DNA of 64,000 nucleotides from Protoeuglena noctilucae (GCA_958009085.1 OY253688.1:1-64000); one strand, 5' to 3'. Counted from the stretch's first letter, positions 21,035 to 52,729 are shown. Notes: a model not told the origin generated them from the sequence alone. Translations and numbers: made by a program.

Positions 21035-24000
21035 ATGTGGGCCCTGGGCTCGCGGGAGAACAAGGACCAGGAGCTTAACGACCTCCTTTCTCAGCTGGCC
21101 GCGGTGCAAAAGCAAGAGCCCGCTTCTCAGCTCAACGAGAGGTGCGAGGGCGCGTGTGTTGCTTTACAGGCTCTGGTTGGACGCGATGGTGCCCGGTCCT
21201 CTACCGATGCGTCGTGTGTAACTGTGAGTGTCGTTTGCTGTCTCCGGCGTGCCTGGAACGCTCGTGGCGAGTCACTGCAACTCCACCTAAACGCAGGGTG
21301 GCCGTGGAGATCGTTTTGAAACTCCAATCGCAAGGCGCGTTCGGCTCGGACGGTCTCATCAATACCATAGGTGACCCTTGCGTAACCGCGGAGGCGCTTG
21401 ACACGTGCATGCGCGCAGAGGGCACGGCAAGCGGGATGAACATGGCTTTTACGCCCGCGCATCGCCCCGCTCGCAGATGGCCGGGAGTATCTGACTCGCT
21501 CACACCTCCGCAAGGAGCTTGCGCAGCTGCTGGAGTCCTCCGGGGGCCGCCTGACGCTCTCGGACGCGGCAAACGCGCTGCGCGTCCACGCTTTGCACCT
21601 CCGTGCCGCTGCGGAGGACATCGCCGACGTCCGCGGCGCCGACGCCCTCGCTGCGGCGGTATCGAATGCGCATTCGGACACCCCCGCGCCCTTCTCGGTG
21701 GCACTCGTGGGCGGGGAGCTGCTCTCGCGGGCGTACGTGGAGGGAACGGTCGCATCCACCCTGGCCGCGCAGCTGGGTTGCTCCGGTCGTGTCCCCGTCG
21801 CTGCGCTTGCCCGCGAGCTGTCCCTGCCGTCTGACGTGGTGCGCCCCGTCCTGGCCGCCTGCGCCCCTCGCCTCTCCCCGCCCGCGCGCCTCATCCGCGG
21901 CCACGCCTACACTGATGCTCACCTGCTGCAGCTGCGGGGGGCGGCGAGGGAGCGGCTGCGGGCGGCGAGGGAGCCAGTGACGCTGGCGGACCTGGCGACG
22001 GAGCTGGCCGGGGATGGGGAGCTGGATGGCGAGGTGGTGCGGGAGGCAGTGGCAGAGATGGTGGGGAGCGGGGAAGTGCCGGGGAGCCTGACAGGTGGGT
22101 GATGGACTATTATGAAGAGTTATATATGTGAATTGAATGAACGTGGTTGTTAATCAAGAGCGTTGCAGTGTGCCTGGCAGCCCGGGGCGGTGACGCGAAA
22201 GCGCGTGGCAGTGTGTGGTGACGTGGCTTCGCCCATTCTGCCGCAGCGGGTGGTTCCCGCTTCGAGCCATCGTCTCACCGGGAGACCCTCCTGGCCCAGC
22301 TGGCCTCGTCCCTGCGCGCGACTGGCGTGGTGACGTTCAAAGAGGCCAAGGCACGGGGGGTGGGGAGAGGAGCAGCGGCGTTGGTGGATGCGCTGGGGGA
22401 CGCGGCGGTGGGGGCGGTGGCTCTGCCGACGCTGCTGGTGGGGAGGGAGGCGGTGGAAGCAGCCAGGGTGAGGGGGGTGGGGTGGGATGAGGGAGGGAGG
22501 GAGTGAGTGAATGAGTGAGAGAGTGAGTGAGTGTGGGAGTGAGTGAGTGGTTGACAGAGTGGGTGAGGGAGAGTGCTGTCGGTAGAAGTGTTTCTTTGCA
22601 TGGGTGACCCACTAGTGTGACGGCATCAATCATATATAGTCACTAGCTACAGCCTTCTGTTCATTCACCCCCCCTCATCTCTCATCTCTCCCCATCTCCC
22701 CAGGCCCGCGTGTCTGAGGCGGTGGCTCTCGAGTCATGGGTGGACATGGCCACGGTGCTGCCAGCCGCCTTCACCGCCCCCGACATCCGGGCACTGCTGG
22801 CGCACCTGGGTCAGACGGGCACGGCGCTGTCGCTGGGGGTGGCAGGGGGGCAGGGGAGGTGGGGGGACGCGGAGGGGGCAGCGGTGGTGGCAGACACGTG
22901 TGCGGGTGAGAGAGATGGGTGGATATGGGGTGGTGGCAGACACGTGTGCGCGTGAGAGAGAGGTGTTAGTAGATGTGGGGTGGTGGCAACAGATGGGTGC
23001 TTAATAGTAAGCATGCGTGTCATCCCTCGCACCCACCTCTCCCTCTCTGGTTCTGCACTCTTCACCCACACATGTTGTCCACTCCTACACCCCACTTCCT
23101 CCCCCCGCAGTCAGCCACGTGTTTTTGAATCAAGCATTGGACCGCCTGGAGTCATCCGCACGAGCAGAGGCGGCATCGCAGTTGCGCAAGGGAAGCAACA
23201 ACAACAACAACAGGGGCCATGCACAAGGAAAGGGCGGGGGTGGGCGGCGGGGTGGCACGGATGGTTTCCAATCACAATCGCAGTCACAGCCACAATTGCA
23301 GTCAATGTCCGTGCCTGACGCGGCGTGGGTGTCTTCGCGTCTGTCGTCGATGTTCCGTGACTTGGAGGGGGCGGGGGCGGACGGGGGACTGGTGGAGGGA
23401 GTGGCGGAGATGATGGTGGGGGAGGTGAGGGAGGGAGTGGGGTGTAGGAGTGGACAACATGTGTGGGTGAAGAGTGCAGAACCAGAGAGGGAGAGGTGGG
23501 TGCGAGGGATGAGAGATGCCTGTGTGTACGTATTCGAGTACGGGTGATGCGCCATCAGTTGCGTGAGTCACTGTTGGGTCCACGGAACGAAACAAGTCGG
23601 GAGAACTTGTCTTCATATCACAGCATGTCTCTCTCTCCCCATTCATTTCCAGGTCCGTTCCTGTTTCCTGGATACGATCGCCACTCTGCGTGAGAGGGAG
23701 GCGCAGTCAAGAGACGCGGCCCGGCACGGCATCGCGGAAGTGGCGGCGGCGGCATACCAGGAAGCATGGATGGTGAGTGATGTGGAGGGGGAGCGGGAAG
23801 GGTATGGTATGTAGTACTATGTATGGTAAGTGACCACACTCTGCCTCGCATGCGCAGGAGTGGCATCCCGGTCACTGCCACTCCCCCACTCCCCCATTCA
23901 CCCACTCCCTCACTCCTTCCCCCTTTCAGATGGAGGAGGGCGCGTCCGTCTGTGCCACCTCCCTCCACCTCGACACCCCCACGCTGGCAATGGTGCGGGC

Positions 24001-25354
24001 GGAGGCAGGGTCTGCGAGGGGTGCGGTGCTGCTGTCACTGCTGAGGGCGGCGGACTTCTTGGATGGGCAGCCGGGGGCGGGGGACGTGGAGAGCGTGCGA
24101 GAGTGGTTGGAGCAGGTGAGGGTGCGAGTGGCATGGAGACGGTCATGATAATGATGATGATGCCATCACATGCACGAGCATGCGCATCTATCTACCGCCT
24201 AATCATCTCATCCATCGCCATCCACCCCTATCACCCACTGTAACACTCATCGCACCTTCTCATCCCTCTGCAGAGTGCGGGCCCTGCCACGGTCGACCTC
24301 TCCTCCGACCGCTCCCCCCCACCCCCGCCCCTGGCCTCCCTGCTGTCGCGGCGGGGCAGCCCCCGCGCCCAGGCAGCACTCCAAGCACTGCAGGAGAGAC
24401 TGGACGCGGGGGGACTGACGCGGCCGTGGCTGGACGACACGGCCACGCTGGCACGGTGAGGGGTGGCAGTCGGGGTGGCCACATGTGACGCGACTGGTGG
24501 ATATGGAAGGGTGGAGTTGAGCATGGAGTTTAGCATGTGTTGCGACTGATGGGCCGACTGAAGCACCGAGCACTAACATCGCTCGTCACCCTCGCAACCC
24601 ATCCTTGTTTCCGCTTTGTTCTCATCACTCTACTGCAACTCATGCCACTCACACCCATCCCCATCCCCCACCCCCTCAGGTCCCACTGCGGCATGCCACT
24701 CACATGTATCCCCTGTCCCCATCTCTCTGCCATGTGCCACTCACATGCAACCCATCTCCCATCCCCCCACCCACCCCCTCTCAGGTCCCACTGCGGCATG
24801 CCCCTGTCGCCCCCGCCTGCCCCCCTGGCCGCCTCCGCCACTGCCGCCCTCTGCGCCCACTTGACCATTGCTTTGCGGTCCGTGGATGTGGTGGGGTCCT
24901 TCGCGTGCGCACTGCCGCTGGCACTCGCGTCGCGGTGGGGCGCGTGCGTGCGTGTGCCGCTGCGTGCGGTGCCTGGGGTGGTCAAGGCGATGCGGGCAGC
25001 GATGACGGAACAGGAGGGGCAGCTGCTGGCGGAGGTGAGGGAGGGGTGTGATGGGGGATGACTGTACTACAGTGGGTGTGACCCAGGGCAGCTGATGGGC
25101 ATGCTTGCGCGTTCGCCTCTCATCTCCCCCAGCACTGGCACAAGTGTGATACAGTGGATGTGCTCAAATGTAGTATGCTTAGTAATTGAGCATAATCGAT
25201 TTCGTCCCCCCCCCCCCAGCACGCTTCCAACGTGGTGGATGTGCTGAAGGGCGCGGCTTGGGCGCAGGAGAGGGGAGCCGAGACGCTGAAGAGACTGGTG
25301 GAGATGCTGTGCAAGGATGGGGATGGGGATGGAGATAAGGATGCGCAGGGGTAG
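21035..25354 (+). CDS. UFL1: E3 UFM1-protein ligase 1 (11 exons)
   Basis: N-terminus ELNDLLSQLAAVQ...QLNERVAVEIVLKL...LINTIDGREYLTRSHLRKEL...GGRLTLSD matches the UFL1 signature; phase-consistent GT-AG introns. Confidence 0.85.
23020..23512. repeat. Perfect 77-bp inverted repeat (arms 23020-23096 and 23436-23512) flanking UFL1 exon 23111-23424
   Basis: Arm 2 is the exact reverse complement of arm 1 (TCATCCCTCGCACCCACC...CTACACCCCACT), checked base by base. Confidence 0.95.
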
Positions 25355-25556
25355 AGGAATGCGCTGTGCGACGGCGGTGACCCATGCAGCGTGGGTGAGA
25401 GCGAGGGTGCTAGGGGTTGCAAAGAGCATCGACAGACTCTAGACATCGCTGCTGTTGCTGTCGCATGCTTTGAAGCGTGTTGTTCGTTGCGTCGCACAAA
25501 GGTGCGTGTGATTGAATGTCCTAGTAATCATCGGCACGGTCTGTCACGGCCTGGCG

Positions 25557-26794
25557 TCACGGGTCCACGCGCACGAGCTTGATGTCGAACTGCAGCGTCT
25601 TGTCAATCATGTTGTTCTTGCCCTCTACCACGAACGACAGGGCCCTGCGGGGATGACACACGACACGCTTGCAAATGCGACCGTGCTGTCACGACGTCTC
25701 ATATAACCCCATGCAACTCCCCATGTACACAATACCACACACCCATACACACCCCACAATGCCTCACCTGTCCCCCGAGAATGTCATCTACCCCCTGTAT
25801 ACACCCACCCGCACCCACAACCACCCCACCCCACACATCCCCACCTCTCCCCCGAGAATGTCGTCGGCTTGGGCCCCCACGTCCGGAAGTCGCCATCCGG
25901 GTACGACAGCTCCCAGGGGACGATCACGCGGCGGATGCCACCCTCCTGGGGACGGAGAATGCAATGCTTGAGCGTCGCAAGCAGGCACAGAGGCTATGCC
26001 TGGCAAGTGCTGACAGCCTCACTGCCTCCAGTAACCCACCCCTGCCACCCTTGAACAATATCAACAACACCCCCCCCACCCCCACGCGCCCCTCGCCTTC
26101 ATCCCCTCCACTGCCTCCTGGAACCCAGCGATGACGCGGTCCTCCCCCAATCGAAACCGATAGTAGTCCTTGTCATCATCGTTAAACGACGACCCCTTCG
26201 TCTTGTTCTTCGCCTCAAAGGGACGACCGTAGTACCCGATCGTCACGCCCGTCCAGTCCACCACGCACGTGTCACCGCGGCGCGGCTGGCGGCCGGTGCC
26301 TTCCCGGAAATCGTAGTACTGCAGCCCCGAGGGCGTCTCGGTGAAGTCCGCGAAACGCATGCGCTCTTTGCCGTAGTCCTTCCCCTTCAGCGCCTCCATT
26401 GACGACTCGCGTGTCGCGTGCGCGCTCTCGGGCCACGCGAGCGCTGCGGGGGCGGGCGACGGCGGGTGGATTGCGGGCACGCCTTGCCCGCGGGCGTGCG
26501 TGCGGCGTGTGGGGCCGCCTCCGCCCTCGACAGCCGCGAATGACGTATATTGCTACAAGGGTTGCGAATCTGACCTCCAGCAGCTTCGCAGGCCCTTCTC
26601 CGGCGTGTGAGGCCGCTTCCACACGCACCTGGGACGCAGGCCGCAACGCCTGCGCCTAGCAGCGACGCTACGTCGCGTCGAGACGGCAGCGCATGCAGGC
26701 GGTGCCGAAATGCATCGAGACGCCTCCTTGACTGCGGGCTAGTCCCGATCGCTCCCCCGGCCCGCTGTGCGGGGCAGGCAGCGAGACCACGCAT
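25557..26794 (-). CDS. FKBP19: Thylakoid-lumen FKBP-type PPIase, FKBP19-like
   Basis: GKDYGKERMRFADFTETPSGLQY, VVDWTGVTIGYYGRPFEAKNKTKG, GPKPTTFSGERAL; twin-Arg SRRD in the presequence. Start approximate. Confidence 0.88.
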
Positions 26795-27117
26795 CGCCCG
26801 CCCAGAAACACCCGATCCCGACGCACTCTCCGGTTTCGGCGATGACGTCAGCGGCTTTGCAGCAACCAGCGGCTCTCGCGGTCGCAGAGCCACTCCGCAG
26901 GGCAGCACACTGGCGCAGCTCCGACGTGGCGGTGGTGCACCCGCCAAGAGGCGCGTGCGCCTCCTCGCCGCGTGGATCCGGAGCGTTGGAGCGCGAACGA
27001 GCTTTTGGTGGCACGCAAGCGCTCTGCAATCCCTCCGCGTAATCTCTGTCGCAGAGTGCCGGGGCTGGTGGTGCGCCCTGGGGCCGTCGCCCCGTGAAGC
27101 GTCTGCTGCGCTCCAGG

Positions 27118-28418
27118 ATGGCAGAGCAGGACGTCGTCCTGTTCGCCGTGCGCAACGCGTTCTACCTGGGCGCGTACGCGACGTGCGTCGAGGAGGCCGA
27201 GGACATGGAGGAGCTCAGCGAGGCGCAGCGGGTGGAGAGGGACTGCTACGTTTACCGAAGCCACATCGCCCAGGGGAATTTCGAGGTGATACTGCGTGGC
27301 GCCCGGGCAGGCACAAGCCAGCCCCGGGCCTGTCGAATGGGTCGCGATCGCGCGCGTGGGGAGCCCGCGGGCGTCGCGGAGTTGGCGCACGGTGACTTGA
27401 CGCGTGCTTGCGCGCTTCTGTGACGCGCAGGCCGTGCTGGGGCCGTCGGGGATCCAGGACGACGCGCCCACGGCGGTGCTGGCGGTGCGGCTGCTCGCCC
27501 AGTACGACGCGGTCCCCGATCTCCGCGGGCAGGTGGTGGAGGAGATCAAGAGCTGGCTGGAGGTGACTGGCAAGCCGCGCGGGATGTCCGCGGGTCTCGA
27601 GAATCGCCCTCGATGTTGCTGGAATTCCCTGCCCGGCCCTCTCGCGCGCAGGACGACGCGTGCAAGTCCATCATCATGGTGCAGACGGTAGCGGGGCTCC
27701 TATTCAGCAAGGAGCAGGACTGGGGCGAGGCGCTGAAGGCGTGCCACGGGGCGCGGTCGCTGGAGCAGCACGCTGTGTGTGTCCAGGCCTACCTGGGGAT
27801 GGATCGGCCGGACAAGGCGCTGGAGCAAGTGAAGAAGATGGAGGAGGCGGACGAGGACGCGACGCTGACGCAGGTGGGGGCCGAGGAGGAAGGCACAACG
27901 GTGCAAGCGGGCTTTGTTCGGAGGCATATCATGTGAAGCACGTGCAATGCGTTCCCGTTCGCAGCTGTGCCAGGCGTGGGTTGGCATGGAGATGGGCGGG
28001 CGCCTCGCGGGGGAGGCGGGCGTGATTTTCCAGGACCTGGGAGATCGCTACTTCTGGACGCCCCAGATGCACACGTGGCGCGCGGTGGCCAAGATGCGCA
28101 CGGGCCGCTTCGACGAGGCGGAAGAGTCGCTGAAGGTGCGCGGCGCGCGGTGCTTTGTCTGATGCTGTGCAGACGATGCGACAGGGCTGCCAGCGTTGCG
28201 AGCAACGTGTGCTGTGACTCTGCCCGCAGGAGGCGATGGAGATGGATGCCAAGTTCCCGGACGCGCTGGCGAACGGCATCATCTGCGCGCTGCACCTGGG
28301 CAAGCCCACGGCGCCGCTGGTGCAGCAGCTGGGTGCCGTGGCCCCGGGGCACCTCCTGCTGCAGCGGGTGCGCGAGGCCGAGGAGGCCTTTGCGCAGGCG
28401 GCGAGCGCCTTTGCCTAG
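27118..28418 (+). CDS. COPE: Coatomer subunit epsilon (5 exons)
   Basis: LFAVRNAFYLGAY, ERDCYVYRSHIAQG, LEQHAVCVQAYLGMDRPDKA, DEDATLTQLCQAWVG, DALANGIICALHLGK. Confidence 0.93.
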
Positions 28419-30156: not shown

Positions 30157-30506
30157 GACTAAGAGCGACAGACAGCGATGCTTGATCGACATGTACGTGC
30201 TGCCCGCCGTCGGGTGCCCGCGGCAATGTGAAGTTACACGCGCGACATGCGACGATGCCAGCGCCCGTCTCTGCTTCATGATGTGACGCCCCTACGCCAG
30301 TCGTGGCAGACCGGGCAGCCGGCAAACGGCAGCATGCGCGCAAGCTCGCACCCGCTCCCGGGACGCTCTAGGCCCAGCCACAGCACGGCACGATAGGCAC
30401 AAAGCGTGAGCCACCCTGAGGGAGCGGTGAGCGGTCGGTACCCGCATGCGCCCTGCGGCCTTCGCCATCGAGCAGGGTGGCACTGCAGCCCCGTTAACGC
30501 CCGCCG

Positions 30507-33500
30507 TCACATCATGGTGCCCCAGATGTGGATGCTGCCGTCGTCGCTGGCACTGGGGGCGCGAGACGGCGAGTGGGATGTAAGTGCGCTGACTGCCCCC
30601 GCTATCAATGAGTAAATATGCCCTGCTGGAGGACACGCTTGGAGGACACACAAAGCAACCAAGACATGGAATTCCCGTCACTAAGTTGATGTGGTGGTGA
30701 TAACATCGCTACTATTCCAACCCCTCCCNNNNNNNNNNNNNNNNNNNNNNNNNNNNNNNNNNNNNNNNNNNNNNNNNNNNNNNNNNNNNNNNNNNNNNNN
30801 NNNNNNNNNNNNNNNNNNNNNNNNNNNNNNNNNNNNNNNNNNNNNNNNNNNNNNNNNNNNNNNNNNNNNNNNNNNNNNNNNNNNNNNNNNNNNNNNNNNN
30901 NNNNNNNNNNNNNNNNNNNNNNNNNNNNGTCATAGTTACTGCCACAACACCACCCACTCTCACCTGGCGATCATGTGGTGGTGCCTGGGGTTCCAGCTGC
31001 AGCAGTTGACGGTCCCCGCGTGCCCGGACAGCACTTCCAGCAGCTTCCCCGTCTCCTTGTGCCACACGTACACTTGCGTGTCGTCACTCCCGCACGCCAC
31101 GAACCCCTCCTGGTAGCCACCCATGCACGGGCGCAGCACGAAGCGGCTGGACCGGTCGGGCATGCCCGTGTACTTGACCTTGGGGGACATGTCCATGCGG
31201 CCGTCCACCGACATCTCCCACAACTGCGGTGATGAGAGGGGAGGGTGGTGTCGGTCATTTGAATAACCATGCGATAATGGATTGATAGTCAGCTCCCACC
31301 ACTACTTGTCACGCATCCACCACCCCCTCATCTCCCCTCATCTCTCACCTCCAGTTGCTGCCCATACAACGCCACTCATCTCCCCCATCTCTCACCTCCA
31401 GTTGCTGCCCGTACAGCGCCACCAGCGCATGCCGGCTGTCCCTGCTCATGCACACCGAAAAGGCCCCCTCATCCAGCCTTGTGCTGCTCTCCGCCCCGCT
31501 CTCCAGCTCGTGCACACGCAGGCTGCGCATGGACTGCCCGTAACACACGAACACGAGCCGGCTGCCGTCTCTGGTCAGTGCCATGTCCGTCACGCGGTGC
31601 TCGCCCATGGGACGGCGCAGGTGCACTTCGCCTGTCGATGCGTCCAGCACCACCAGGTGACGGTCACTCGTGATGGCCGCGAACTGGAAGTGGGGGCGAA
31701 TGGTGGTGTGCTATTGGTAACAGCAGCACTATCGACACTACTTCACCACACCCATCACTCATTAACCCCACCCATCTCTCGCCTGGTCTCTCTGCCCCGG
31801 CACCCACTGCACCACCAGCGTGGCATGCCCGGCGTCGTAGGCCGGAGGGGGAGGGGCGGGGGAGCGGCCGGGGGGGGACGCCAGCGACAGCACCCGCAGC
31901 TGCCTGCCCTGGTGGGGGTCCCACACCGTCTGCGATAACAATAACAACAATGGGAGTGCGTGAGTGGTTGACAGTTGTTAGATGACACAATGATTGATAC
32001 TCGATGCGACAAGATCTAGCGACTACACACACATATACACACCCCCACCCCCACCCCCACCCCCACCCCACTCACCACCAACCCACAGCTCCTCCCCCTC
32101 CCCCCCTCCTCGCAAACTGCCAGCAGCCGTTCGCCATCCGCACTCCACGCCAGATACGCAACAGGCCCGGGATGTGGGCCCAGTTCCCTCGCAAGGGACC
32201 AGGGGGCATCCGAAGCGTCCTCAACATCTGAGGGACTGGCGTCGTGACTGGCACCGTGACTGGCATCATGCGAAACGCCAGTGCCGTCGGACGGAACGTG
32301 CCAGATGAGCACGCGCTGGTCCTGGGGGGGAGGTGTGGGGATGAGAGAGATGAGTTGTTTATGTTTGTATAGATGAGTTGTTCATGTTTGTGACATGTTA
32401 TGAGTGCAATTGTGTGAGATGAGCACAGGCGGGCGAGGAAGGGTGGGCGTGAAACAAGGGAGCGGCCACTTGTGCTGTCAGTCACTCTCCCATCTCCCCC
32501 CCCTCCATTAATAGAACCACCACTCAGTGTCTTTCACTGTCAATCTATCTACCCATCCACCCCCCCCCTCGCCTTGGACCCGCTCGCCAGCCACCGCCCG
32601 TCCGGGGAGAATGCGCAGAACCAGACCTCGTCCCTGTGGCCCTCCAATACCTGAGATGAAAGGGGATGAGATTGAATGAGATGAGAGAGTGACAGTGCAT
32701 GGGATAATGAGATGAGAGGGTGCGGATGGGGCGTGACGGTGAGGGAGTGAGGGAGGGGGGCATCCCCACCCACCGCACCCGCTTGGCTCTTAAACACCTC
32801 ATTTGCACACGTAGACCATCATAAACAACCACACATGACATACACATGAATTCCCTTTGTGACCCCCCCCCTTCAAAACTTGCCTGCACCAGCTCCGAGG
32901 GCACTTGCCCCGGCGTGGCGTAGACGTCCTCGAGCAGACTGGGCGGGTCGTCGGAGTTCAAATACACGCACTGCGACGCCTGGTACTTGAGCGCCTGGTC
33001 CAGCAGAGTCTCCAGGCGGCGGGGGGGGACGACCGAGGTGGGGGGGACCAGGCGAAGCAGGGACTGGGGGGGGGGGGGGGGGAGTGGATGAGCGAGAGAG
33101 TGAGAGGTAATCCAACAGCACTGCGCGGGACGCGTGCATGTGCTGTGGTGCAAACAAGCAAATGTCAGTGCTTTCAACCACACCCGCCCCTCACCTGCAG
33201 CACCCTCTCCCTCCCCTCCGCCCCCGCCGCATCCACGCCCGTCGCCTCCGCCACCGCAGACGCGTCCTGGCACAGCAGACCCGCACTAAGACGCCGCACC
33301 TCTCCCAGGTCCCCCCCTTTGCACGGCACCACCTCAGATCGGAGGATGCGCAGGGCACCAGACACGTCGCCGGACTGGGGGTGGGTGGGTGAGGGAAAGA
33401 GTGGGGTGGGAAGTGGCGTAGAGGGGGTGGGTGTGTGGGTGTGGGTGGGTGTGGATGGTAATGTGGGCATGGCACCTCCAATCTCTAAGCATCGTCATAG

Positions 33501-34185
33501 ACACACACGAACAGTCACAAACACACTGCCCCCCTCTCATTCCCTCACCATCAGCGTCTCGACCATTTTCTGCGCCAGCAGCAGGAACCTCGCCCTGCGC
33601 CGATCCGGATCAGTAAAAAAGGGAGCAGTCTCCACGCACGCCAGCGCCGACCCCCAGTCGCCCGCACGCACGGCCGATGCCAAGTGGAGGAGCTCGGAGG
33701 GCTGGCAAGCCACGCCGGTGCGGCTCTCCAGGAAGCGGGCCACGTCTGGGGGGTGGGAATGGTGTCAGGGTGGTTACTAACTACCCTTAATGCCAACAGG
33801 GTGGAGGTGGGACAGCACGCCCCGCACCTTCAACCATTCCCACCAGCAGCGTTCCTCTTTCCCCCCTCACCTTCCAATCCCAAATGCATCAGCTCCGCCT
33901 CCATCAGCCGCACAAGCTCCCGCGGGTCGATGTTGTTCCGAGGGCCCAGGCGAGTGGACCAGAGGCGCTGCAGGGCGTCGTGCTTGGCGACGCCGTTCGC
34001 GCCCGTCTCGGCGCTCGTCGCTGCGGATGCACAGAAACGTTTAGAATACCTCGGCATGGCGATGGGCTACAAGGCCCGACGCATTCCGCTTCGTTTGCAT
34101 CGCTGCCCGCTGCGGGAGCCAAGGCAAGCGCGTCGAGCGGCGAATCCCGTCCACGACGCTTCCGACGCGTCGCGTCGCTCACCAT
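30507..34185 (-). CDS. WDR26: WD40 protein WDR26/GID7-like (LisH/CTLH + WD40)
   Basis: IDPRELVRLMEAELMHLG, RARFLLLAQKMVE, VVPPRRLETLLDQALKYQ, LEGHRDEVWFCAFSPDGRWLASGSKD, FVACGSDDTQVYVWH...LSGHAGTVNCCSWNP. First exon uncertain. Confidence 0.88.
30729..30928. other. Assembly gap (200 N) in the last intron of WDR26
   Basis: Run of N. Confidence 1.
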
Positions 34186-35014
34186 GGTCCGCTCCGTTGC
34201 CGTCCGCGTCCTGCGCGGCCGGCATGGCTGGCGCGGGGGCGGCCTGGCCCCCGCTCGAGCGCTTGGCCGGCCTCGGCGCTCCTGCGACGCGCGCAGCGGC
34301 ATTTGCAGCATCGCGAAAGCCTTTCAGACACATCCACGCATCCAAGGGGGCCAGCGACGCGCGGTGACGTGCCGCCTGCCGCGCGGGCGAGACCCGTACC
34401 TGCGGACTTCGACTCCCTCGGCGACGGCGCGGCCTTGCGCTTCCCGGGTCGCCCCCTGGTCTGCGGCACCTCCGCGTCGCTATTGGCTGGCGCTGCGGTG
34501 ACGGCGGGGTTGCGGGGGACTTCTCCCGGGACCGTGGAGAGCTGCGAGGGTGCGCAGGGTCGCTGTGCGGGGACCCGGGAGCCGTGCAAGGGCGGTCCCG
34601 GGCTGTGATTTGATTCGATCTTGTCCTCGGGATGCGAATTGTACCCCGACGCACCTCCTTCTTCTCCCCTGGCGCTGTTGCGTGTGCTGCGCAGCATCAG
34701 TAAGGTGAGCTGCTCATCGAGGTATCCCTTCTCTGTGGGCCAATCAGGCGGCGGTTGAGACGAACCGATCGCGGCCGAGAGCGCGCGAGTCCCAAGAGGA
34801 TGCACGCCCTGCGCGTCTGGCACGCGTTCCTGCATCGCGGGAAGGCGATCACTGTTCGCGAGGATCGCACTGGGTGCGTCAGGCAATCGTCTGGTGCACG
34901 CGTGCGCAGGCAGCGCGACGCGTCCCCCGTCACGCAGCGCGGAGAGCGTCCCATACCTAACCGAGCACGGGCCCACGCCCCTGCGCACGGGTTGCGCCCG
35001 CTGCAGCCGTCCCC

Positions 35015-38921
<3,907 letters not shown>

Positions 38922-42100: not shown

Positions 42101-42423
42101 CGTCCGGGAGCGTGTAGTGATATACATCCATCTGCGCGCAAAGGGGAGCGGCGAGGATGCGGGGCGGCGGAGGGGGAAGCGACGAGCTGGCTTTGACGCT
42201 CGCCCTGGCGCCCAGCGCGCTTTTTTCCCGCATACGCTGTCCGCAAACGATAGATAATTAATATACTCATGTATCTCGCCTCGTTCATGCAGGTGATGCG
42301 GGCCCGCTGCATCAGGCGCGGGATGTCGAGGTCGGCGGCATTGGCGGGCAGCCGCGCGAGCAGGGAGCACTTCAGCTCCGCCTGGGGATCGCCCTCGGAA
42401 GGGTCGATATTCACGAAAACCAT
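39141..42423 (-). CDS. SET-domain lysine methyltransferase (Rubisco LSMT/SETD3-like family)
   Basis: GMGRGAMAARDVRPGDTVVSIP, WDALPSHFSTG, YTWENFEWMAGLW, LLPVAQLMNHSP, GEQVFLSYGVRPNHKLLLFYGFAIPRNPHDFV. Last exons approximate. Confidence 0.85.
41166..41221. repeat. (GGGAGT)n hexamer tract in a SET-gene intron
   Basis: About seven units; C-rich on the sense strand just upstream of the acceptor. Confidence 0.9.
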
Positions 42424-42986
42424 CTGGGTGTTACAGACAGGCAAAGGAGCGAGAGCTTGCGCGCCGGGCGGGGTCCGCGCTGCAGGCGTCGCAGGGAGGC
42501 TGCGCCCAGTGCGGGAGGGAAAGGGACTGGATGAGGCGACTATCGGCAAGAAATGTGCACAAAGAGCTCGCACACTGACTCGCGCGGCAAACCAAGCGCT
42601 CGTTTTGGCCAAACACGGGTAGGCCTGCACGGCACGTCTGACGTGCGGTTTCCCCTCTTGCATCGGCGTCCAGCAGCGGCCCGGGGCAGATTTCGAAACT
42701 CCGTCGTCCTCTCTATCATTGCCGATCGCCGGGTGGCTCGTCGGCGCCCTGGGCACCTAAAGCTCCCGCCTTCCCGCGCCTGTCCGGCGTCCCGCGCCGT
42801 TCCGCTTCGTCGGAACAGCAGAAACCTTTCCTCCTCCGCTCCAAGCTCCTCATGCTGGGGAGGATCATCCGCGAGCGCGTGTCGAGCAACTGCCTGCCGT
42901 CCCCCAACCTCGCTCCCTGGGCCGCCGCGGAGCTCCTCGCGGCTCTCTCCGCTGCCGGATCGAAGCGTTCGATGCACACGACGACT

Positions 42987-45847
42987 ATGGAGTCCCTCTC
43001 CCTCCACGCCCGCGGCTTCCAGGCCCCGGCGCGGGCCAGCGTGCGCAGGTGGGGTTTCGCGCGCCCAGGCCCACGCTCGCTGGCTTTGACGATTAAAACG
43101 CCGTGATCCGCTTTGTCTAGGCAACAAAGAAGCGATCGGCACTCTGCGCAGCCCCAAACGGTGCTCCCGCGCGACGCCCGGCCTGCTTTGCCCGGGGTCG
43201 GTTAGCCCGGCAGCGCGCCGCAGCGTCCCCGCCCCCTCCGCGCCCCCGCAGTCCCGCGCGCATGTCATATATGATCTCCGCAGCCGGCGCCGCACCGGCA
43301 TGGCGCTCCTCGGCGACCCTGCGCTCGGCCCGCGCCGTGGCACGCCCCTCCCCTCGCAACGCGGGCATTGCCGCAGCCGCTGCTTCGGGCGACGCCAGCG
43401 CAGCGAAGGATTCGGGTGACATGAACGAAAGGGACAAGGCGCTTCAGGCGAGAGACGTTAGCGGGGTGTCATCCTGCGCACTCATGCCATGAGTTGCCGG
43501 CGCGATGTGGGGCGATGCACCTGACCCTGCCAAAGGCTTTCTCTTCACCCCTTCCACCCCAGAGCGTGCTTCGGGACTTGAACAAGAAATTCGGTGCCAA
43601 TTCCGTGGTGTTCCTGGGTGCCAAAGAGGCCGCGGATGTGGAGAGGACGCCGTCGGGGTCGTTGACGCTCGACCTTGCTTTGGGTGGGGGATACCCGGTG
43701 GGGAGAATCGTGGAGATATTCGGGCCAGGTGAATGCGTGTGATGGGGTAGGATGGGTTGATTGGAATGAAGTAGCTGGCTCCGTTACCAAGTCGCTCCCT
43801 CACGAAAATTATCACAATTCCTCACCCCTCACCCAGTCCTCCGGCAAGACCACCCTGGCCGTCCACGCCATTGCCGAGGTGCATGCTTAGTCACTATCAC
43901 CACTATCATTACCATCGCTTATCACAATCCATCAACTCTATAACCCCAGAGTCCTCCGGCAAGACCACCCTGGCCGTCCACGCCATCGCCGAGGTGCAGC
44001 GCCGTGGTGGCCGCGCGGCCTTCATCGACGCGGAGCATTCCCTGGACGCCACCTACGCCGCGTCTCTGGGAGTGGACCTGGATTCTCTGCTCGTGCATCA
44101 GCCGGAGGCGGGCGAGGACGCGCTGGAGGTGGCCGACACGCTCATGCGCAGCCGGGCGGTCGACATGATCGTGGTGGACTCGGGTGAGGGAGGAGAGCGG
44201 GTGTTTCAGATGGTGATAGTGATTGGAACAGGATTGGAGTGGTGGGCGTGATCGTGATTGACTCGGGTGAGAGAAGGGCCCCCCTCTGCCCTGGTCCCCC
44301 ATTCGCAACCCACGCCCATGTCACCACCACCACACATGTAACAACTGTGTAACACCATCACGCCAACGCAACTCCCACCCTATATCTCCCCCCAGTGTCC
44401 GCGCTCGTCCCCCGCTCCGAGCTCGAGGGCCAAGTGGGCGCGCTGCAGGTGGGGGGGCAGGCGCGACTCATGTCGGGCGCGATGCGCAAGCTCGCCCAGT
44501 CCGCCAGCCGCAGCCGCTGCACGCTCGTCTTCTTAAACCAGCTCCGGCACAAGGTGGGCGTGCTGTACGGCAATCCCGAGACCACCAGCGGGGGGCAGGC
44601 GCTCAAGTACTACGCGTCCGTGCGCATCGATGTGCGCGCCAAGGGGCAGCTGGTCGAGGTGAGGGGTGGGATGGGTGGGGGTGGTGTCTATATCAGTGTA
44701 TATATATGCCAGGTACTATGGTATACACAAACACCTTCCTGTCTCACTCCCCCTCTCATTCAGCTGTTTTCACTGTTACTTCTACTAACACTTCAACTAA
44801 CCCTAACACTGCTAGTGCTTCCCCAATCATCCCAGCGAGGCCATCGGCATGCATGTCGCCCCTCCCCCTTTCTCACATCTGTGCTGTCCATGTCAATAGA
44901 CACTGTTTCCGTCAATTGCAGGGCAGCGAGGCCATCGGCATGCATGTGACCCTCCACTTGCAACCGTTACAGTAAACAATGCTAGTGCTCTCCCTTACCC
45001 CCAGGGCAGCGAGGCCATCGGCATGCGTGTGCTTGCGAAAGTGAAGAAGAACAAGACAGCGCCCCCTTTTAGGGAGGCGGGGTTCGATCTGCTGTTCAAG
45101 CAGGGCATCGACAGCGTGGGGTGCGTGATCGACGCGGCAGAGGTGAGTGTATATGGATGTGTGTGTGTGTGTGTGTGTGTGTGATGTGCTGAGAGAGTGT
45201 CAGTGTGGGTGTGGGTGTGTAGCAATGTGGCTGCCTGCTCCACTCACATCACCGACTCCTTCTTTCTAATACACCAACTACCCCTCAGTAGTACTATCTC
45301 ATATCCACCCCGATCACCCCCCCCCCCAGAACCTGGGCGTGATGGTGAGGCGCGGCGCCTTCTACTATTACGGGTCACGCAACCTGGCGCAGGGGCGTGC
45401 CAAGACGATCGAGGTGCTGAAGGGGGATGCGGGGCTGAGGGGGCAGGTGGAGGAGGAGGTGCGGGCCAAGATGAGGGGGGTCGTCAGCGCGGGTGAGGGG
45501 ATGGGGGTGTGTGTGATGAGGGGGGTGGGGTGGGGTGTGTTGAGGGGGGTCGTCAGCGCGGGTGAGAGAAGTGGGGTGGGGTGTGTGATGAGGGGGGTCG
45601 TCAGCGCGGGTGAGAGTGGCGGGGTTGCATGGATGGCTCGCATGCCACTTTGGTATCCTCGACTGCTCGATCGACTGTGCCCATGTCATTTCAGTATTAT
45701 CGATTGCTCCATCGACTGTTTATCGCAGTGAATGCGAACCTGGGTGCGTCATCGGAGGCGGTGGCGGAGGATGCGCTGGTGGGGCTGGCGGAGGACATGG
45801 AGAGGGGGAGGGGGGAGTACGAGGAGTGGGGGGAGGTGAGTGATTGA
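42987..45847 (+). CDS. recA: Organelle-targeted RecA recombinase
   Basis: [34 protein letters not shown] (Walker A), [62 protein letters not shown]. Ser/Arg/Ala-rich presequence; start could also be 42852 or 43262. Confidence 0.93.
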
Positions 45848-46296
45848 GATGGGGATGGGAGATGATGAGGATGGGATTAAGAGAGGGAGTTGGTGTTATC
45901 GTGTCGCGCTGCTGCTTGCGCTTGAAACAACCCGCTTTTCGTCGTTGCCTTTCTCAGGACCCCGACAACGTCGCGGAGGAGAAGAGCGGATTCGCGCCCT
46001 GACCGCACCATATACAACCATCCATACCATCCATGACGGCGCATCATGGATAGAAGGAAGGGGCGATTGCTGAGCCTTGATCATCACTCACATCACGACG
46101 GCACAGTGGGGAGGGAGGGGTTACTTGCCGAGCCTGGTGTTAATGCATGCGTTGGGACATCGGCATAAGCTGCTAACCATCGACTGGCCACTTGAATCGC
46201 GCGCTATCTCACGCGCCACCATACCTATGCAACGACCGGCAAGCACATCACACAGGCAGACCCCTAACGCATACAGCCCAGGTACGCATGTGGTCG

Positions 46297-47326: not shown

Positions 47327-47817
47327 CCGCCGCGGCCGTCGCTCAAGCGCCGCGGAGCGGCATATGCGTCACGGGGCCGACCAGCCTCAGGCGCGATGCG
47401 GCGCTGGCCGGGGCGGGCGCTGGGCGTCAAACGGTGGGCGACAGCTGGGTGTTGAAGATGCGAGGCGTCGTTTTGGGGGTGTCAAAGCCACTCGCGACGT
47501 CACTGCTGGCTATGTTACAATCTTGGCCAGCGCGGGATGCAGACTGGAGCCTCGCTCTGCACGCGGCGCTCCGACCTGCTCCGGCAGCACGCTAGGGCAC
47601 TGACTGGCCGCGGGTCCGTCCAGCTCTGGCCCTGCCGTGGCTCGCGCACGCCAGTCCGGTGTTGACGTCGGCGAGACTGAGGCCCTTTCATCGCCCTGTG
47701 CGCATCCGCGGCGTCTGTGCCTGCAGCTTTGGTTCGGACCCGTGGCTGCCCCCTTCCTGGGCCCTGCCGTCCCGCCTGAGGTCTCCTGGTCGGTGACGTG
47801 TGATTCTTGGCAATGAG

Positions 47818-50800
47818 ATGGCGGCCGTAGCCGCGGCGGTAGCCCCGAAGGGCCCCGGGGCCGAGGATGCGGGCGCGGAGGACGCCCTGCACCACGCCCG
47901 GGACGCATCTTCCGCCGGGGAGTCTGTCGACATCGACGTCGAGGAACTCGACATCCTCGCCGGGGGTATGCCCGACCTCTCGTCCCTCACCAAGGACCTG
48001 CAGAGGTGCGCCGCGCCCGGGGCGGTCCGTGGCCCCGCGATCGCCCGCTGCTCCGCCCGCTGCCCCCCGCTGTCGCGCGCGCGATGGTTCTTCGCATTAT
48101 CCTTAGGTCTGCGTGCCGGAGATGCTCTCCGGAACGCTTGACGCGCCGCGCGTCCTCACGCGAGCTGCGTTTATGCATTGGCGGTCCCGTGTTGCGCAGA
48201 TGCGCCAAGCACGAGGTCGTCCGGGCCATCCTGGACCAGGGTGTGGACGTGAGGCAGTCATCTCGGGACATCTACTCGAAGATGGTCGAGGCGGAGATGC
48301 TGTCGGTCAAGGACTACGTCGAGGTGAGGAATGGGCGTTGGGTTGATGTGGATGAGGAGTGGCGTGTGATGTGATGTCGCCATGTGACTGTGTGATACGT
48401 CGTATATTCAGCGGTACTGCATGCGCTGGCGTGCAGTGTATCACCCAGTGTGTTGTCCATAATGACATTCATCCCAGCTCGCAACCCTTCACACATCACC
48501 ACCCTGCCCCGTCCTTCCCCTTCCCCCCAGGAGGCCTCTGCCCTGCAGGACCTGCACGACCGCATTCTGGCATGCGACGGCGTGCTGGCGGAGGTGGAGG
48601 TGGTGCTGCAGCGATTCCAGAGCGACCTGGGGAGCATCAGCGGGCAGATACGCGCCCTGCAGGAGCAGAGCGCCAGTTTGAGGTGAGGGGGAGAGAGCTG
48701 GGTTGTTGTTATGAACGGTGTGTGCTTAGTGTATTCCCTATCCTCACATCCCCCTTGCACCCATCTAAACCATCGTCGCTCGTCGCCACCCATTCCTTGT
48801 ACTCTCATGTCCCCCACCCCTCCCCCCTTCCCCTCCCCGCAGCACTCGCCTGGACAACCGTCGCGAGGCAGGCAAGCGCCTGGGGTCGGTGCTGGAGAGC
48901 CTGGTGGTGCCGCCGGGGCTGGTGCAGAACGTGACGAGGGCAGAGGTGGACGAGGCGTATGTAACGCACCTGGTGAGATGGGGGGTCGTAGATTCGAATG
49001 TGATGCACGTTGTCATGCAACCCCACTGCCACCCCACTGCCACCCCACTGCCACCCCACTGCCACCCCACTGCCACCCCACTGCCACCCCTCACTGCCAC
49101 CCTCCCAGCCACCCCCACTGCCACCCCCACTGCCACCCCCACTGCCGCCCTTAACACCGCCCCCACTGCCACCCCCACTGCCACCCTCCCAGCCACTCAC
49201 AGCCACCCCCACCACCCCCCCACCCCTCCCCCCCCAACGCAGTCCCAGCTCAGCGCCAAGCTCCACGCCCTGTCATCCCGCAACCTCCCCCCCGACGCCG
49301 CCGCGCGCCGCGACGTGGAGCCGGAGCTCAACCGCCTGCGACTGTCCGCCGTGCACCGCGTGAGGGCATACCTGCTCAAGGAGTTTCAGCAGCTGGGGCA
49401 CGGGAGGACCAACGTGCCCGTCCTGCAGAACACCAAGCTGCTGCCGCTCAAGCAGCTGATGCGGTTCGTGGTGAGTGAGGGAAAGGGGTGACGGTGTGTG
49501 GGGTAGCTGAATGCGGGTTGTGGTGAGTGAGGGATGAGGGTTGACGGCGTGAGGTAGCTGACCGGATCCGCTTCATTACTCCTTCCCCACCATTCCCCTT
49601 ATTTATACACTCCCAGTCTGACCACGGCCCCGAGTGCCGCGACGAGCTCCGCCAGTCGTACGTCTCCGTGCGCGGCCGCACCCTCACCCGCGACATGGGG
49701 CAGCTGCTGGCGGGGATTGAACGCATTCGCGCGCCCCCTGCCACCAAGGCGGACCTCGTGGGGTCATCGGGGGGGATCATGCCGGTGCTCAACACGCTAG
49801 GCACGCAGGGGCTGGGTGAGTAGTTGATGAGGGGTGGGGGTGGAGTGTGGGTGTGGGGATGGGTGGGGTGGGTGAGTGTGGGTATGGGGACAGGGTGGGT
49901 GTGGGAGCAGTGACAGCGGCCTGGGTCGCCCTGACATTGTATTCATATCCACCTCAACCCCGATTTATCGCCCCATATCACCCCCAGGCAATCTGTTCCC
50001 GATTGGCGGTCGTCATGCCGAGTCTCAGAAGGCGGGGGTCTTCCGTGCCGGCTCTCGTCTCAAGGACCTCACTGCATTGGAGGAGATGCCGCTGGTGCCG
50101 TTCGTGGAGATACGGTGAGGGATTGGTTGTTACTGTGTACTTAGGACAATGTATTATGAATATACTGTTAAGATATCAGGGCTGCTGATGGGGTTGCGGT
50201 GGGCGACATTAAACAGACAGGCACACGACCTCGACATGGGCCGGTAAATGCAAATAGGATGCAATGCTATTTGTAATTTAATGCTCATAATTATATCTCC
50301 CCCTCATCTCCCCCCCAGTGAGGGCCGCCAGCACCCAGTGGAGGCGCTCTTCCGCACAGCAGTGGCGCTGGTGAGGGGCAATGGGGACTGTTGATCAAGA
50401 TATAGTAACAACTCGTTCGATATCACATGTAATGACAGTAAATTACTATAGAACACCATAAAATAATAGTTATATAGTGATCATACAGTGTATGTTACAT
50501 CTCACCCCTTCTACCCTCCCCGTCTCCCCCCCTGTAGCTCTCCGACGCCTGCACCTCCGAGTACCTCTTCTGCCTCATCCATTGTATATTACTTATAGTA
50601 ATATGTAACATATAAATAACCGACTCCACCCCCCCTCTCCTTCAGCTCTCCGACGCCTGCACCTCCGAGTACCTTTTTTGTTTGGAGTTCTTCGGTGACG
50701 CTGACCTGTTCGACCAGGCAGCTGCGGATGCAATTCGTGCGACCGAGGCGTGGGTGCAGCACACGGTGGCCGAGTGCTACGACCTGGTCGGGCTGCTGCT

Positions 50801-52729
50801 CATGGTGCGGGCCAACCTGGGGATGCACATCGCCATGCAGAGGAGAGCTGGTGAGTGCGTGGGGTGGGTGGGTGTGAAGCATGGGGGGTGGTGTGACGTG
50901 AGTTGGGCATGGGATTGGAATGTGTGGCTTGTGATCTTGTCATTTATGACTACTGTCATCCTAACTGTGATCTAAACACATAGATCTGCTTCATCATACT
51001 ATCACTGTCCTCACCCACTTCCCCCCCAGTCCCTTGCCTGGACGGCCTCTTCGACCGCATCAACCTGCTGCTGTGGCCGCGCGTCAAGGCGGTGCTGGCA
51101 GAGCACGTCCAGTCCCTCTCCCCTGCGCGCGACAACGCCCTCGCGCAGCGGGACCCCTCGTCGCACCCCGTGACCAGAAGAGTGGCGGAACTGGTGGCGT
51201 CGCTGTATCAGCTGTGCGCGGACGTGGGGGGGGTAGACCAGGGCAGGATCGCGGGGGAGGGGCAGATGGAGGTGAGGGGGGGGGTGGTGGTGGTGGGGGG
51301 GGGTTGAGGGAGAGGGGCAGATGGAGGTGAGGGGGGGTGGGTGAGGTGATGGTGTGTGGGTGAGAGTGGGTGAGAGGGGGGTGGGTGACAGAGAGAGGGT
51401 CAGGTCGTCTTGCCGCATTCCATCACAACAGAAACAACACACGACCCCTCTATCTCACTCAGCTGACATCAATACCAATGCTTTCTCTCCCTCTCTTTCC
51501 CCCCCATAGATGGCCGCCCAGCAGCTGGAGAGTGCGTATTTGGGATTCCTCGCCCGTCACCAGAAGCGCCTGTCCCCCTCGGACGGGGCCACCTTCCGCG
51601 TCAACAACCTCGACACGTTCACGTCGGTGCTGAGGTGATTATTGTGGGGTGGTTGGTTGGTGGTTGATCAGTGATGGTGTTTGTGAGGGATGGGTGCAGT
51701 CGGCACCTCCGTATGTGCAAAGAAGTGGGCACGGACAAGGACCAGCTGGGATCCATAACAAACATACTGGTACTGATACACTCATTCACTCTCCCCCATC
51801 TCATCATTCACAGAGAAGTGGGCACGGACAAGGACCAGCTGGGCTTCGGCCACTCGGGTCGCCAGGCGCTGCAGCGATTGCAGAGACTCCAGGACGACGC
51901 GGTGTCCGACCTGGGACTGTTCGCGCTGCGCACGCACTTTGGGGCGCTCGTGTCGTTCGCCGAGAACTACGGCCTGCTGAGGGCGCAGGGGCAGGGGCAG
52001 GGGCGGAGGGCGCATGCGGGTGCGTGGGGGGTGGGGGTGGGGTGGATGGGGTTAGGAGTGGTTGGCTGTGTTCTGGTGTGTGCATGCATGCGGGTGCGTG
52101 GGGAGTTAGGGGTGGGTTGGATGGGGTCTGCTTGGATATGTGGGTGGGTGGGGAGGAACGTGCTGCAGTTGCGGGGTGCAACTGCTTCCCATGACATTAC
52201 ATCGTCATGACACCGGTCGCGATCGCTTTACATAGCAACAACCCCATCCATTCAGCTCACATATCTCGCATCCCCCGCTGTTGCAGGTGCCGAGTCCCAC
52301 GACGCGCCAACTAGCGATGCGGCCGAGGGCGCCCCTTCCGACCCCAACGCCGCGGACGGCCCCCAGACCGACGGCGCTCCCGACGACTTCAAGGGTGCCA
52401 GAAACGACGACGAGGGCCGCGTGGTGGGCCGTGCGGTGCCCGTGGATGAAGCGGAGAGGGTGGCACGCGCATTCGAAGCCACCTGGGAGCGACAGGTGCA
52501 CGACTTGCACTCGGAGCTCATCCGGCGCGTCGGGAACCTGCTTACCGGGCAGGCGGTGCTGAAGGTGTGCATGACGCAGCTGGTGGTCTTCTACCGGGCG
52601 TTTCTGGCGGCGCTGGGGGCGTCGGGTCCGAAAGGGCAGGAGCTGGCGGGGAGGGCGGTCAAGGTGGCGAGCATTCTGTACGAGATCAAGAGGCTCGAGA
52701 AGCCGGGGGCGGGGCGGGGGGGGCGATGA
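47818..52729 (+). CDS. VPS52: GARP complex subunit VPS52 (13 exons)
   Basis: VRAILDQGVDVRQ, LHDRILACDGVLAEVEVVLQRFQSDLGSISGQIRALQEQS, DVEPELNRLR, TNVPVLQ, DACTSEYLFCLEFF, LDGLFDRINLLLWPR, TQLVVFYRAF, ILYEIKR. Confidence 0.92.
49021..49195. repeat. Intronic minisatellite of CCCCACTGCCA-like 11-12-mers
   Basis: About six near-perfect units followed by degenerate ones, in the 3' half of a VPS52 intron. Confidence 0.85.

Follow-up and report, generated by a model that had tools for sequence, protein, structure and literature searches.

Polar G-run and C-run zones at splice junctions extend into synonymous codons in a 64-kb window of Protoeuglena noctilucae

How far can splicing reach into the choice of synonymous codons, and by what means? 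The question is raised by a stretch of 64,000 nucleotides (nt) from Protoeuglena noctilucae (GCA_958009085.1 OY253688.1:1-64000), referred to here as the window, which is nuclear-type DNA of 65% GC with dense short introns and forms the single evidence base of this study. A first-pass annotation of the sequence had described, between 21477 and 52030, a G/C skew locked to splice sites, G-rich around donors and C-rich around acceptors, which extended into synonymous codons and was ascribed either to a compositional splicing code or to a splice-coupled mutational asymmetry. The sequences quoted in that annotation are present in the window, and our counts confirmed that the observation is real and strong there.

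Genes were modelled on both strands with a self-written, self-trained gene finder that combines codon log-odds and splice position weight matrices (PWMs) by dynamic programming; an initial run with lax penalties merged the window into giant genes and was discarded. Marine metatranscriptome contigs (four runs, three samples, one study) matched the window at a level of at least 99% and supplied 42 spliced joints, of which the 15 listed were used. The trained gene finder recovered 12 of these 15 RNA-supported introns exactly, and the remaining three were entered by hand. Weak models scoring below 35 (n = 5) were excluded throughout, and three models lost terminal exons that overlapped stronger opposite-strand genes before the later counts. 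The working set comprised 17 genes and 97 introns, 15 RNA-supported and 82 ab initio; the one intron holding a run of N was excluded from intron-sequence counts (n = 96), and intron skew bins were counted on 100 introns, before the models were trimmed. Contig cover was scant or nil in parts of 21400-25400, leaving most introns of the UFL1-like gene without RNA support. Pfam matches were obtained on single exons for UFL1, coatomer-epsilon, glycerol kinase, RecA, Vps52, FKBP, a trypsin/PDZ protease, SLD5, kelch and ankyrin, and the profile coordinates meet end to end across modelled introns for consecutive exons of coatomer-epsilon, RecA and Vps52, which supports the modelled splice sites.

We quantified the skew of the sense strand along introns. 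Intron heads had a G-C skew of +0.75, +0.60, +0.44 and +0.33 in the first four 10-nt bins, falling to about +0.2 by 60-100 nt, and intron tails had a skew of -0.43, -0.55, -0.71 and -0.50 in the last four bins, with about -0.15 still present 100 nt ahead of the acceptor. The interiors of long introns were neutral (-0.02; 12 introns of at least 300 nt). Among 94 introns, the head skew exceeded 0.2 in 72%, the tail skew lay below -0.2 in 77%, and 56% had both; the RNA-supported introns alone (n = 15) had mean head and tail skews of +0.40 and -0.35, and short introns (up to 130 nt, n = 20) showed a weaker pattern (+0.26 and -0.26). Per nt, GGG had a density of 0.126 over the initial 20 intron nt, compared with 0.002 over the final 40; for CCC the values were 0.161 over the final 20 and 0.003 over the initial 20. 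Of 96 introns, four carried at least two CCC within their initial 40 nt, and one carried at least two GGG within its final 40 nt. These results show that the G-head and C-tail polarity of introns is nearly absolute, and, as annotated, it follows gene strand, minus-strand genes being alike in sense orientation.

Within exons, four-fold degenerate sites gave a G:C ratio of 493:581 in the opening third and 749:303 in the closing third (Fisher P = 1.8e-32), and in 66 of 84 internal exons the closing third carried the stronger G skew at third codon positions (Wilcoxon P = 1e-9), so the bias of codon choice is borne out. The annotated C-richness of exon starts held at these synonymous sites, whereas over all codon positions the composition was balanced, with a skew of about 0 in the first 60 exon nt and +0.2 to +0.3 in the last 60. 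Profiled against acceptors and donors within the window, the four-fold skew was about -0.1 to -0.2 over the first 60 exon nt, crossed zero at 60-90 nt and then rose to +0.3 to +0.55. The length of this dip was constant across exons of 60-150, 150-250 and 250-700 nt. The exonic signal does not scale with the exon as a wave would: its main feature is a C-shifted zone of constant extent that covers about 80 nt behind each acceptor, on a G-rich default.

Summed over the window, four-fold sites near an acceptor (within 60 nt) had a G:C ratio of 425:516, compared with 1887:994 far from one. The effect was present in genes inside the annotated span (259:346 near vs 762:299 far, P = 3e-31) and in those outside it (166:170 near vs 1125:695 far, P = 3e-5), the near-acceptor value was the lower one in 13 of 16 genes (Wilcoxon P = 0.011), and minus-strand genes gave the same pattern in sense orientation. 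In the first 40 exon nt the density of GGG was 0.017-0.023 per nt, below the 0.033 expected from composition, and it reached about 0.065 in the last 60 nt; CCC ran in the reverse direction.

At the donor side, the exonic G-richness that had been annotated is present (+0.2 to +0.3), but it is largely the exon baseline. Last exons, which have no donor, showed a similar rise after the dip, first exons showed no additional rise ahead of the donor, and far from acceptors the four-fold skew was 0.38-0.42 within 60 nt of the donor vs 0.29-0.30 at 60-200 nt. The intronless ankyrin gene (331-1860, plus strand) had a four-fold skew of +0.49 throughout. The sole codon family that shifted near donors was GGN, in which GGG:GGC was 88:26 vs 182:133 (odds ratio 2.47, P = 3e-4). 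These results indicate that G-richness before donors is mostly exon baseline, with only GGG rising further.

The exons singled out by the first-pass annotation fit this description with small corrections of their borders. The UFL1 exons 22704-22905 and 24785-25034 and the first UFL1 exon belong to a gene with strong waves, the first exon ending at 22094 in our model and not at 22097. The RecA exon 45330-45492 belongs to a gene with the wave in its conserved exons, and the donor of this exon, at 45492, heads the tandem series of three copies described below. The glycerol kinase exon placed at 36651-37044 has the skewed ends reported, with its start at 36652 in the model:

36652-37044, plus strand: example exon of the glycerol kinase gene, in the conserved kinase core, matching Pfam FGGY_N and FGGY_C

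Its opening codons nearly all end in C, and the codons about 55-85 nt ahead of its donor nearly all end in G.

Could misplaced ab initio splice sites have carried C-rich intron tails and G-rich intron heads into the exon edges? One misplacement of this type came to light, in RecA, where an exon was modelled as 45330-45609 and its probable true end is 45492, and the PWMs were self-trained. Against such an artefact, the effect extends 30-80 nt into exons, the glycerol kinase example sits in a conserved domain, and Pfam coordinates abut across modelled introns. The effect also holds when only RNA-supported acceptors are counted, with a four-fold G:C ratio of 81:59 near vs 239:89 far (P = 0.0017) and a glycine GGG:GGC ratio of 5:20 near vs 42:16 far. 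We therefore regard annotation error as a very improbable source of the exonic signal.

The shift near acceptors was then resolved by codon family, near being within 60 nt of an acceptor and far being at least 110 nt away or in an exon without an acceptor:

Glycine: GGG 25 of 172 (15%) near and 314 of 590 (53%) far; strong shift, GGN odds ratio 0.11
Arginine: CGG plus AGG 20 of 119 near and 203 of 416 far; strong shift, CGN odds ratio 0.20
Proline: CCC:CCG 70:22 near and 105:113 far; strong shift, CCN odds ratio 0.30
Serine: TCC:TCG 69:29 near and 68:114 far; strong shift, TCN odds ratio 0.23
Alanine and leucine: near-acceptor odds ratio 0.53; moderate shift
Threonine: near-acceptor odds ratio 0.73; non-significant
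Valine: GTG:GTC 107:27 near and 319:105 far; no shift, odds ratio 1.3
Glutamine, lysine and glutamate: G-ending share 0.88 near and 0.91 far; no significant shift
Two-fold codons ending in a pyrimidine: C-ending share 0.84 near and 0.80 far; no significant shift (P = 0.08)

The largest shifts occurred at sites that follow a G (odds ratios 0.05-0.26), and sites that follow a T shifted only if a C comes after them. Amino-acid usage near acceptors was mildly altered (alanine 0.76-fold, serine 1.4-fold, glycine 0.83-fold), and the conserved domains of glycerol kinase, RecA and Vps52 show the exonic effect. These results demonstrate that the synonymous shift concerns the making and breaking of G-runs and C-runs, not single G or C residues. 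A signal made of runs is preferred over a plain mutational skew, because a uniform asymmetry would also shift valine and threonine and mark the interiors of introns.

The reading that we favour, to which we give about an even chance of being correct, is that splicing signals composed of G-runs and C-runs at defined positions are under selection that reaches synonymous sites, a selection that we infer from the pattern alone. G-runs (GGG, and motifs such as GTGAG and GGGTG) would mark the surroundings of the 5' splice site, and C-runs (CCC, CTCCC, CACCC) would mark a zone that opens about 100 nt ahead of the 3' splice site and closes about 80 nt past it. Such zones would be free to reach extremes within introns and would be written at synonymous sites within exons. 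After an acceptor, codons that form G-runs (GGG, CGG, AGG) would be avoided and codons that form C-runs (CCC, TCC, GGC, CGC) preferred; farther into the exon, codon usage would return to the G-rich default, with GGG enriched again ahead of the donor. Factors that read G-runs and C-runs, or components of the U1 or U2AF type aided by runs, may use the zones independently to find intron borders, and runs would set these borders where GC content separates exons from introns poorly (69% vs 59%). A large population, as assumed for a marine microalga, would let weak selection at each site shape many codons. The compositional splicing code proposed earlier is partly supported, in its run-based form.

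The same composition might instead have a mutational origin, through a mutation or repair bias tied to splice sites, or through tandem duplication of junctions followed by collapse or gene conversion that carries composition of the intron type to the edges of exons and sequence of the exon type to the edges of introns. Duplicated junctions are indeed present. We searched the 24-mers spanning each junction (16 exonic and 8 intronic nt) and found a copy with at most four mismatches in the own intron for 15 of 192, whereas none of 192 had one in another intron drawn at random. Local alignment placed a copy in the adjacent intron for 10 of the 96 exon heads and for 12 of the 96 exon tails, with about one each expected by chance. 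The aligned copies mostly begin exactly at the exon edge and lie 20-115 nt from the junction, a scale that resembles the exon dip; two of the 10 exon-head matches are atypical, lying hundreds of nt from the acceptor and not beginning at the exon edge. Overall, about one fifth of introns hold a duplicate of the adjacent junction with 13-49 nt of the neighbouring exon. Examples are:

43826-43884, plus strand: intronic copy of the head of the RecA P-loop exon (43952-44000, about 50 nt), with one mismatch and its own CAG acceptor-like site; alignment score 93
45470-45615, plus strand: donor with about 20 nt of upstream exon in three tandem copies about 57-60 nt apart, the first being the donor at 45492
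24672-24695, plus strand: intronic copy of the acceptor junction 24777-24800, one mismatch in 24
37216-37239, plus strand: intronic copy of the acceptor junction 37296-37319, two mismatches in 24

The clearest duplicated splice junction is that at 43826-43884. By their sequence, such copies could serve as decoy or alternative splice sites, and they suggest a simple route to intron lengthening and to the gain of decoy sites. They show sequence crossing splice junctions on the length scale of the wave and may help to build run-rich intron edges.

Further points agree with a mutational contribution. The donor-like motif GTGAG occurs at 4.5 per kb in intron heads vs 0.4-1.2 in exons, simple repeats are present in the heads as well, and at a given splice site the intronic skew varies together with the exonic one (rho 0.23 and 0.26). 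Nevertheless, the duplicates leave the codon-family specificity unexplained and are detectable in only about one fifth of introns. GTN, ACN and two-fold codons are unshifted, the effect is present in conserved protein cores, long-intron interiors are neutral, and the sign of the skew flips twice per exon-intron unit, which to our knowledge no transcription-coupled asymmetry does. The plain form of splice-coupled mutational asymmetry raised by the first-pass annotation is disfavoured by the unequal shifts and the neutral interiors, and a mutational origin as a whole appears unlikely.

Pairing between intron ends offers another explanation, in which the G-zone at a donor pairs with the C-zone at its own acceptor, loops the intron out, and has its helix extended by the exonic parts. 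Introns were predicted to fold more stably than their dinucleotide shuffles (mean z -1.13, P = 5e-8, 79 introns), with 19.0 pairs between the first and last thirds vs 9.9 in shuffles, and this extra stability was not seen in exons (z +0.33, 72 exons). It is not independent evidence, being a consequence of how G and C are kept apart within the intron. Seventeen of the 30 commonest 5-mers of intron heads are reverse complements of top-30 tail 5-mers, and 37 of 96 introns (39%) combine at least three GGG in the first 40 nt with at least three CCC in the last 40 nt, an arrangement proposed as bridging in human introns (Lin et al., PMC4691745).

Pairing of the specific kind that bridging predicts was not found. 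The predicted duplex of the 5' and 3' 50-mers of an intron averaged -28.45 kcal/mol for cognate and -28.22 kcal/mol for non-cognate ends, next to -27.8 kcal/mol for mononucleotide shuffles and -28.9 kcal/mol for random window pairs; the cognate partner had a mean rank of 40 out of 80 and came first in no intron. Intron-end pairing is thus generic and not specific, which speaks against a specific form of the G-zone/C-zone pairing that had been suggested as part of the splicing code. The 37 introns with both a G-head and a C-tail match the 34.9 expected by independence (P = 0.38), co-occurrence across exons was likewise 37 observed vs 36.1 expected, and head and tail skew of one intron were hardly related (rho -0.14, P = 0.19), so that the two intron ends behave as independent signals. 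A change from GTG to GTC in valine would supply pairing partners, yet valine is unshifted. The arrangement does favour generic end-to-end folding, with no sign of bridging being the selected target, and as the cause of the pattern we hold bridging to be improbable.

A related proposal is avoidance of local structure, with one-sided composition keeping splice signals unpaired in a transcript of 65% GC and synonymous sites recruited to that end. The accessibility values that bear on it are thermodynamic predictions with an arbitrary 80-nt span. Over the last 70 intron nt the predicted unpaired probability was 0.55-0.61 vs 0.39-0.43 after block shuffling, and selection on local folding beside splice sites is reported for fungi (PMC4574748). 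When the first 75 exon nt were recoded with distal codon usage, the predicted accessibility of positions -40 to -5 fell from 0.627 to 0.595, native values lying above recoded ones in 55 of 78 cases (P = 9e-6). This exonic contribution is small (0.03), the donor region gained little (0.47 vs 0.43-0.44 shuffled), and at exon starts the gain was nil to about 0.06 per 10-nt bin. The predicted contribution of accessibility looks real but too small for a driver, and we consider avoidance of structure a rather poor candidate for the main cause. Bridging, structure avoidance and duplication-fed mutation are secondary or contributing explanations beside selection on run-based signals.

A bolder version of the run-based reading can also be put forward, though only tentatively and with more doubt than confidence: intron borders in this lineage may be defined mainly by G-run versus C-run polarity and not by purine-rich enhancers or GC content, with opposite signs at the two ends of each exon, in a code that overrides codon preference genome-wide and is renewed by junction duplication. 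Glycine GGG would then swing from about 15% to 50-75% under this code, and tandem duplication of junctions would seed decoy sites and run-rich intron edges.

Several results weigh against selection on run signals. At sites with a T before and a G after, G is not avoided near acceptors (88:17 near vs 287:78 far), so a rule of avoiding every GG is too simple. The exonic signal at RNA-supported acceptors (skew +0.16 near vs +0.46 far) is weaker than in the whole set, and the G-rich exon baseline is present also in the intronless gene (+0.49), its cause unexplained. Of the 97 introns, 82 are ab initio, and since their splice PWMs (spanning 8 and 20 intronic nt) reward G-heads and C-tails, the amplitude within introns may be overstated. 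The misplaced RecA exon end would inflate exon-end G-richness. The co-variation across a splice site is opposite in sense to simple compensation, and on that sign a model in which a weak C-tail is balanced by a stronger exonic C-zone was rejected. Finally, related DNA was not found in a metagenome scan with a 28-member alignment of the ankyrin family, and the data remain one 64-kb window.

How does the pattern compare with known systems? Human exon-end codon effects amount to a few percent, whereas the amplitude here is large (glycine GGG 15% vs 53%). Touchon and co-workers reportedly described in 2004 sense-strand skews of transcribed DNA, to which splice signals add further asymmetry at the edges of introns. 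Unlike transcription-coupled asymmetry, which has one sign along the unit, the present skew alternates in sign, leaves long-intron interiors neutral and is specific to codon families. Enhancers made of G triplets near 5' splice sites were, reportedly, described by McCullough and Berget in 2000.

Exon-end skews of codons and amino acids in humans and Ectocarpus have been attributed to exonic splice enhancers with purine-rich motifs that are largely alike at both ends (Wu et al. 2013, PMC3787667). As far as the accessible text of that paper goes, the two cases share a codon choice that tracks junction distance over tens of nt and a competition of splicing with other codon determinants; they differ in that the polarity here is opposite at the two exon ends and glutamine, lysine and glutamate show no purine (G/A) shift. 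In human introns, G-rich and C-rich intronic enhancers accompany weak, uridine-poor tracts (2008, PMC2481429). In the accessible parts of that report they resemble the present runs as auxiliary intron-recognition motifs of GC-rich introns enriched at defined positions, but both lie upstream of the tract and are interchangeable, unlike the spatially separate zones found here, which reach into coding sequence.

A class of introns with GGG heads and CCC tails makes up 16% of highly structured human introns, with a co-occurrence four times chance (Lin et al. 2016, PMC4691745). Judged by the available sections of this paper, the introns of the window are alike in their G triplets within the first 40 nt, their C triplets within the last 40 nt and a stability above that of shuffles; they are unlike that class in frequency (39%) and in a co-occurrence not above independence. 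In the bridged (AC)m-(GT)n introns of fish in those sections, AC lies 5' and GT lies 3', a GT placement opposite to that in the window, and the exonic extension found here is not described there. Among marine algae, Emiliania huxleyi has a genome of 65% GC, about 60% GC-AG introns and canonical AG acceptors (Feldmesser et al. 2014, PMC4028052). The window resembles it in GC content, frequent GC-AG introns (5 of the 15 with RNA support) and AG acceptors, and the passages on E. huxleyi available from PMC4028052 contain no G/C skew or codon gradient. The present skew polarity was not found described for any alga in the literature covered, which included a 2025 review of microalgal splicing and lay outside subscription journals. 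Exon-end codon skews themselves are known; the present one differs in having opposite polarity at either end of an exon, where the enhancer skews on record are symmetric.

Where the splicing code and the protein code overlap, the effect is usually subtle and has to be extracted statistically. Here it is visible by eye and reverses within single exons. The organism would offer a high-contrast natural system for how much synonymous sequence splicing can claim, and could serve to find out if proteins, small nuclear RNAs or RNA structure read the G-runs and C-runs. Such genomes will be mis-modelled by gene finders and codon-optimisation schemes in which codon usage is taken to be the same at all positions, and transgenes for such algae may need a codon design that differs between exon starts and exon ends.

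The genes of the window that bear on the pattern are the following, one of them an exception:

21477-25354, plus strand: UFL1-like gene, nine modelled exons; Pfam E3_UFM1_ligase on 21479-22093
25557-26839, minus strand: FKBP-type isomerase gene; Pfam FKBP_C; RNA-supported introns 25645-25844, 25946-26096 and 26444-26628
27118-28418, plus strand: coatomer-epsilon gene, four RNA-supported introns of 89-145 nt; Pfam Coatomer_E positions 103-168 and 169-225 abut across an intron
30507-34225, minus strand: WD40-repeat gene, 10 modelled exons, three RNA-supported introns
35578-38538, plus strand: glycerol kinase (FGGY) gene, nine modelled exons; five RNA-supported introns, three of them GC-AG
39141-42423, minus strand: SET-domain-like gene, nine modelled exons; weak Pfam SET match
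42846-46002, plus strand: RecA-type gene; Pfam RecA positions 62-138 and 141-224 on consecutive exons; RecA_C
48282-52729, plus strand: Vps52-like gene, 12 modelled exons

Intron head and tail skews averaged +0.65 and -0.60 in the UFL1-like gene, where the waves are strong, and +0.63 and -0.72 in the Vps52-like gene. The four-fold skew was -0.25 near acceptors and +0.42 far in the glycerol kinase gene, -0.10 and +0.63 in the WD40-repeat gene, and -0.48 vs +0.44 in the SET-domain-like gene, which has the strongest exon dip; in the RecA-type gene the wave lies in conserved exons. The exception is the coatomer-epsilon gene, whose introns are without G-head or C-tail (end skews +0.05 to +0.33 and -0.21 to +0.15) and whose exon starts lack the C dip (four-fold skew +0.49 near acceptors, +0.30 far). 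Two classes of introns, or an effect of expression level, may lie behind this. The same gene has the highest contig depth figures of the window. The RNA-supported WD40 intron 30553-30963 (minus strand) contains a 200-base run of N at 30729-30928.

Borders of the form G[T/C]...AG were present in 15 of 15 RNA-supported introns, after shifts within the ambiguity stated for the joints, and the donor consensus was G[T/C]GAG. Five of the 15 have GC donors, a share of GC-AG introns that far exceeds the usual proportion:

25946-26096, minus strand: GC-AG intron, RNA-supported
31684-31782, minus strand: GC-AG intron, RNA-supported
35634-35745, plus strand: GC-AG intron, RNA-supported
35846-36026, plus strand: GC-AG intron, RNA-supported
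37433-37681, plus strand: GC-AG intron, RNA-supported

The idea that GC donors need stronger G-zones was rejected, their intron heads being less skewed (0.32, n = 18) than those of GT donors (0.44, n = 76).

An all-against-all blastn of the modelled introns revealed no sequence families, returning only overlaps of opposite-strand models and one inverted repeat. An origin of the introns from introners or terminal-inverted-repeat transposons was rejected on this absence of families and on cognate ends that pair no better than non-cognate ones. The inverted repeat is the sole such case in the window:

23020-23103 and 23429-23512, no strand assigned: arms of an 84-nt inverted repeat, 99% complementary, flanking the UFL1 exon 23111-23424

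Its arms are the 3' end of one UFL1 intron and the 5' end of the next. Inverted repeats that flank an exon favour exon looping or back-splicing elsewhere.

Simple repeats whose units resemble the donor, namely (GT)n, (GAGT)n and (GGGTGA)n, were observed in intron heads at 37060-37110, 22490-22560 and 41136-41186. They always have the G-rich orientation on the sense strand, and their complements (CACT, CTCC and C-runs) occupy intron tails. In introns of the whole window, CTNAY motifs, above all CTCAC, peak 10-40 nt upstream of acceptors and may represent the branch-site consensus; CTCAC is also the exact reverse complement of the donor core GTGAG.

In exon bodies, the four-fold excess of G over C was +0.3 to +0.5 and GGG was the commonest glycine codon, and two kelch genes with a very high GC content at third codon positions (10085-14444) had a four-fold skew near zero. 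The ankyrin protein encoded at 331-1860 (plus strand) belongs to a large family, with relatives on long ENA contigs that are 50-63% identical.

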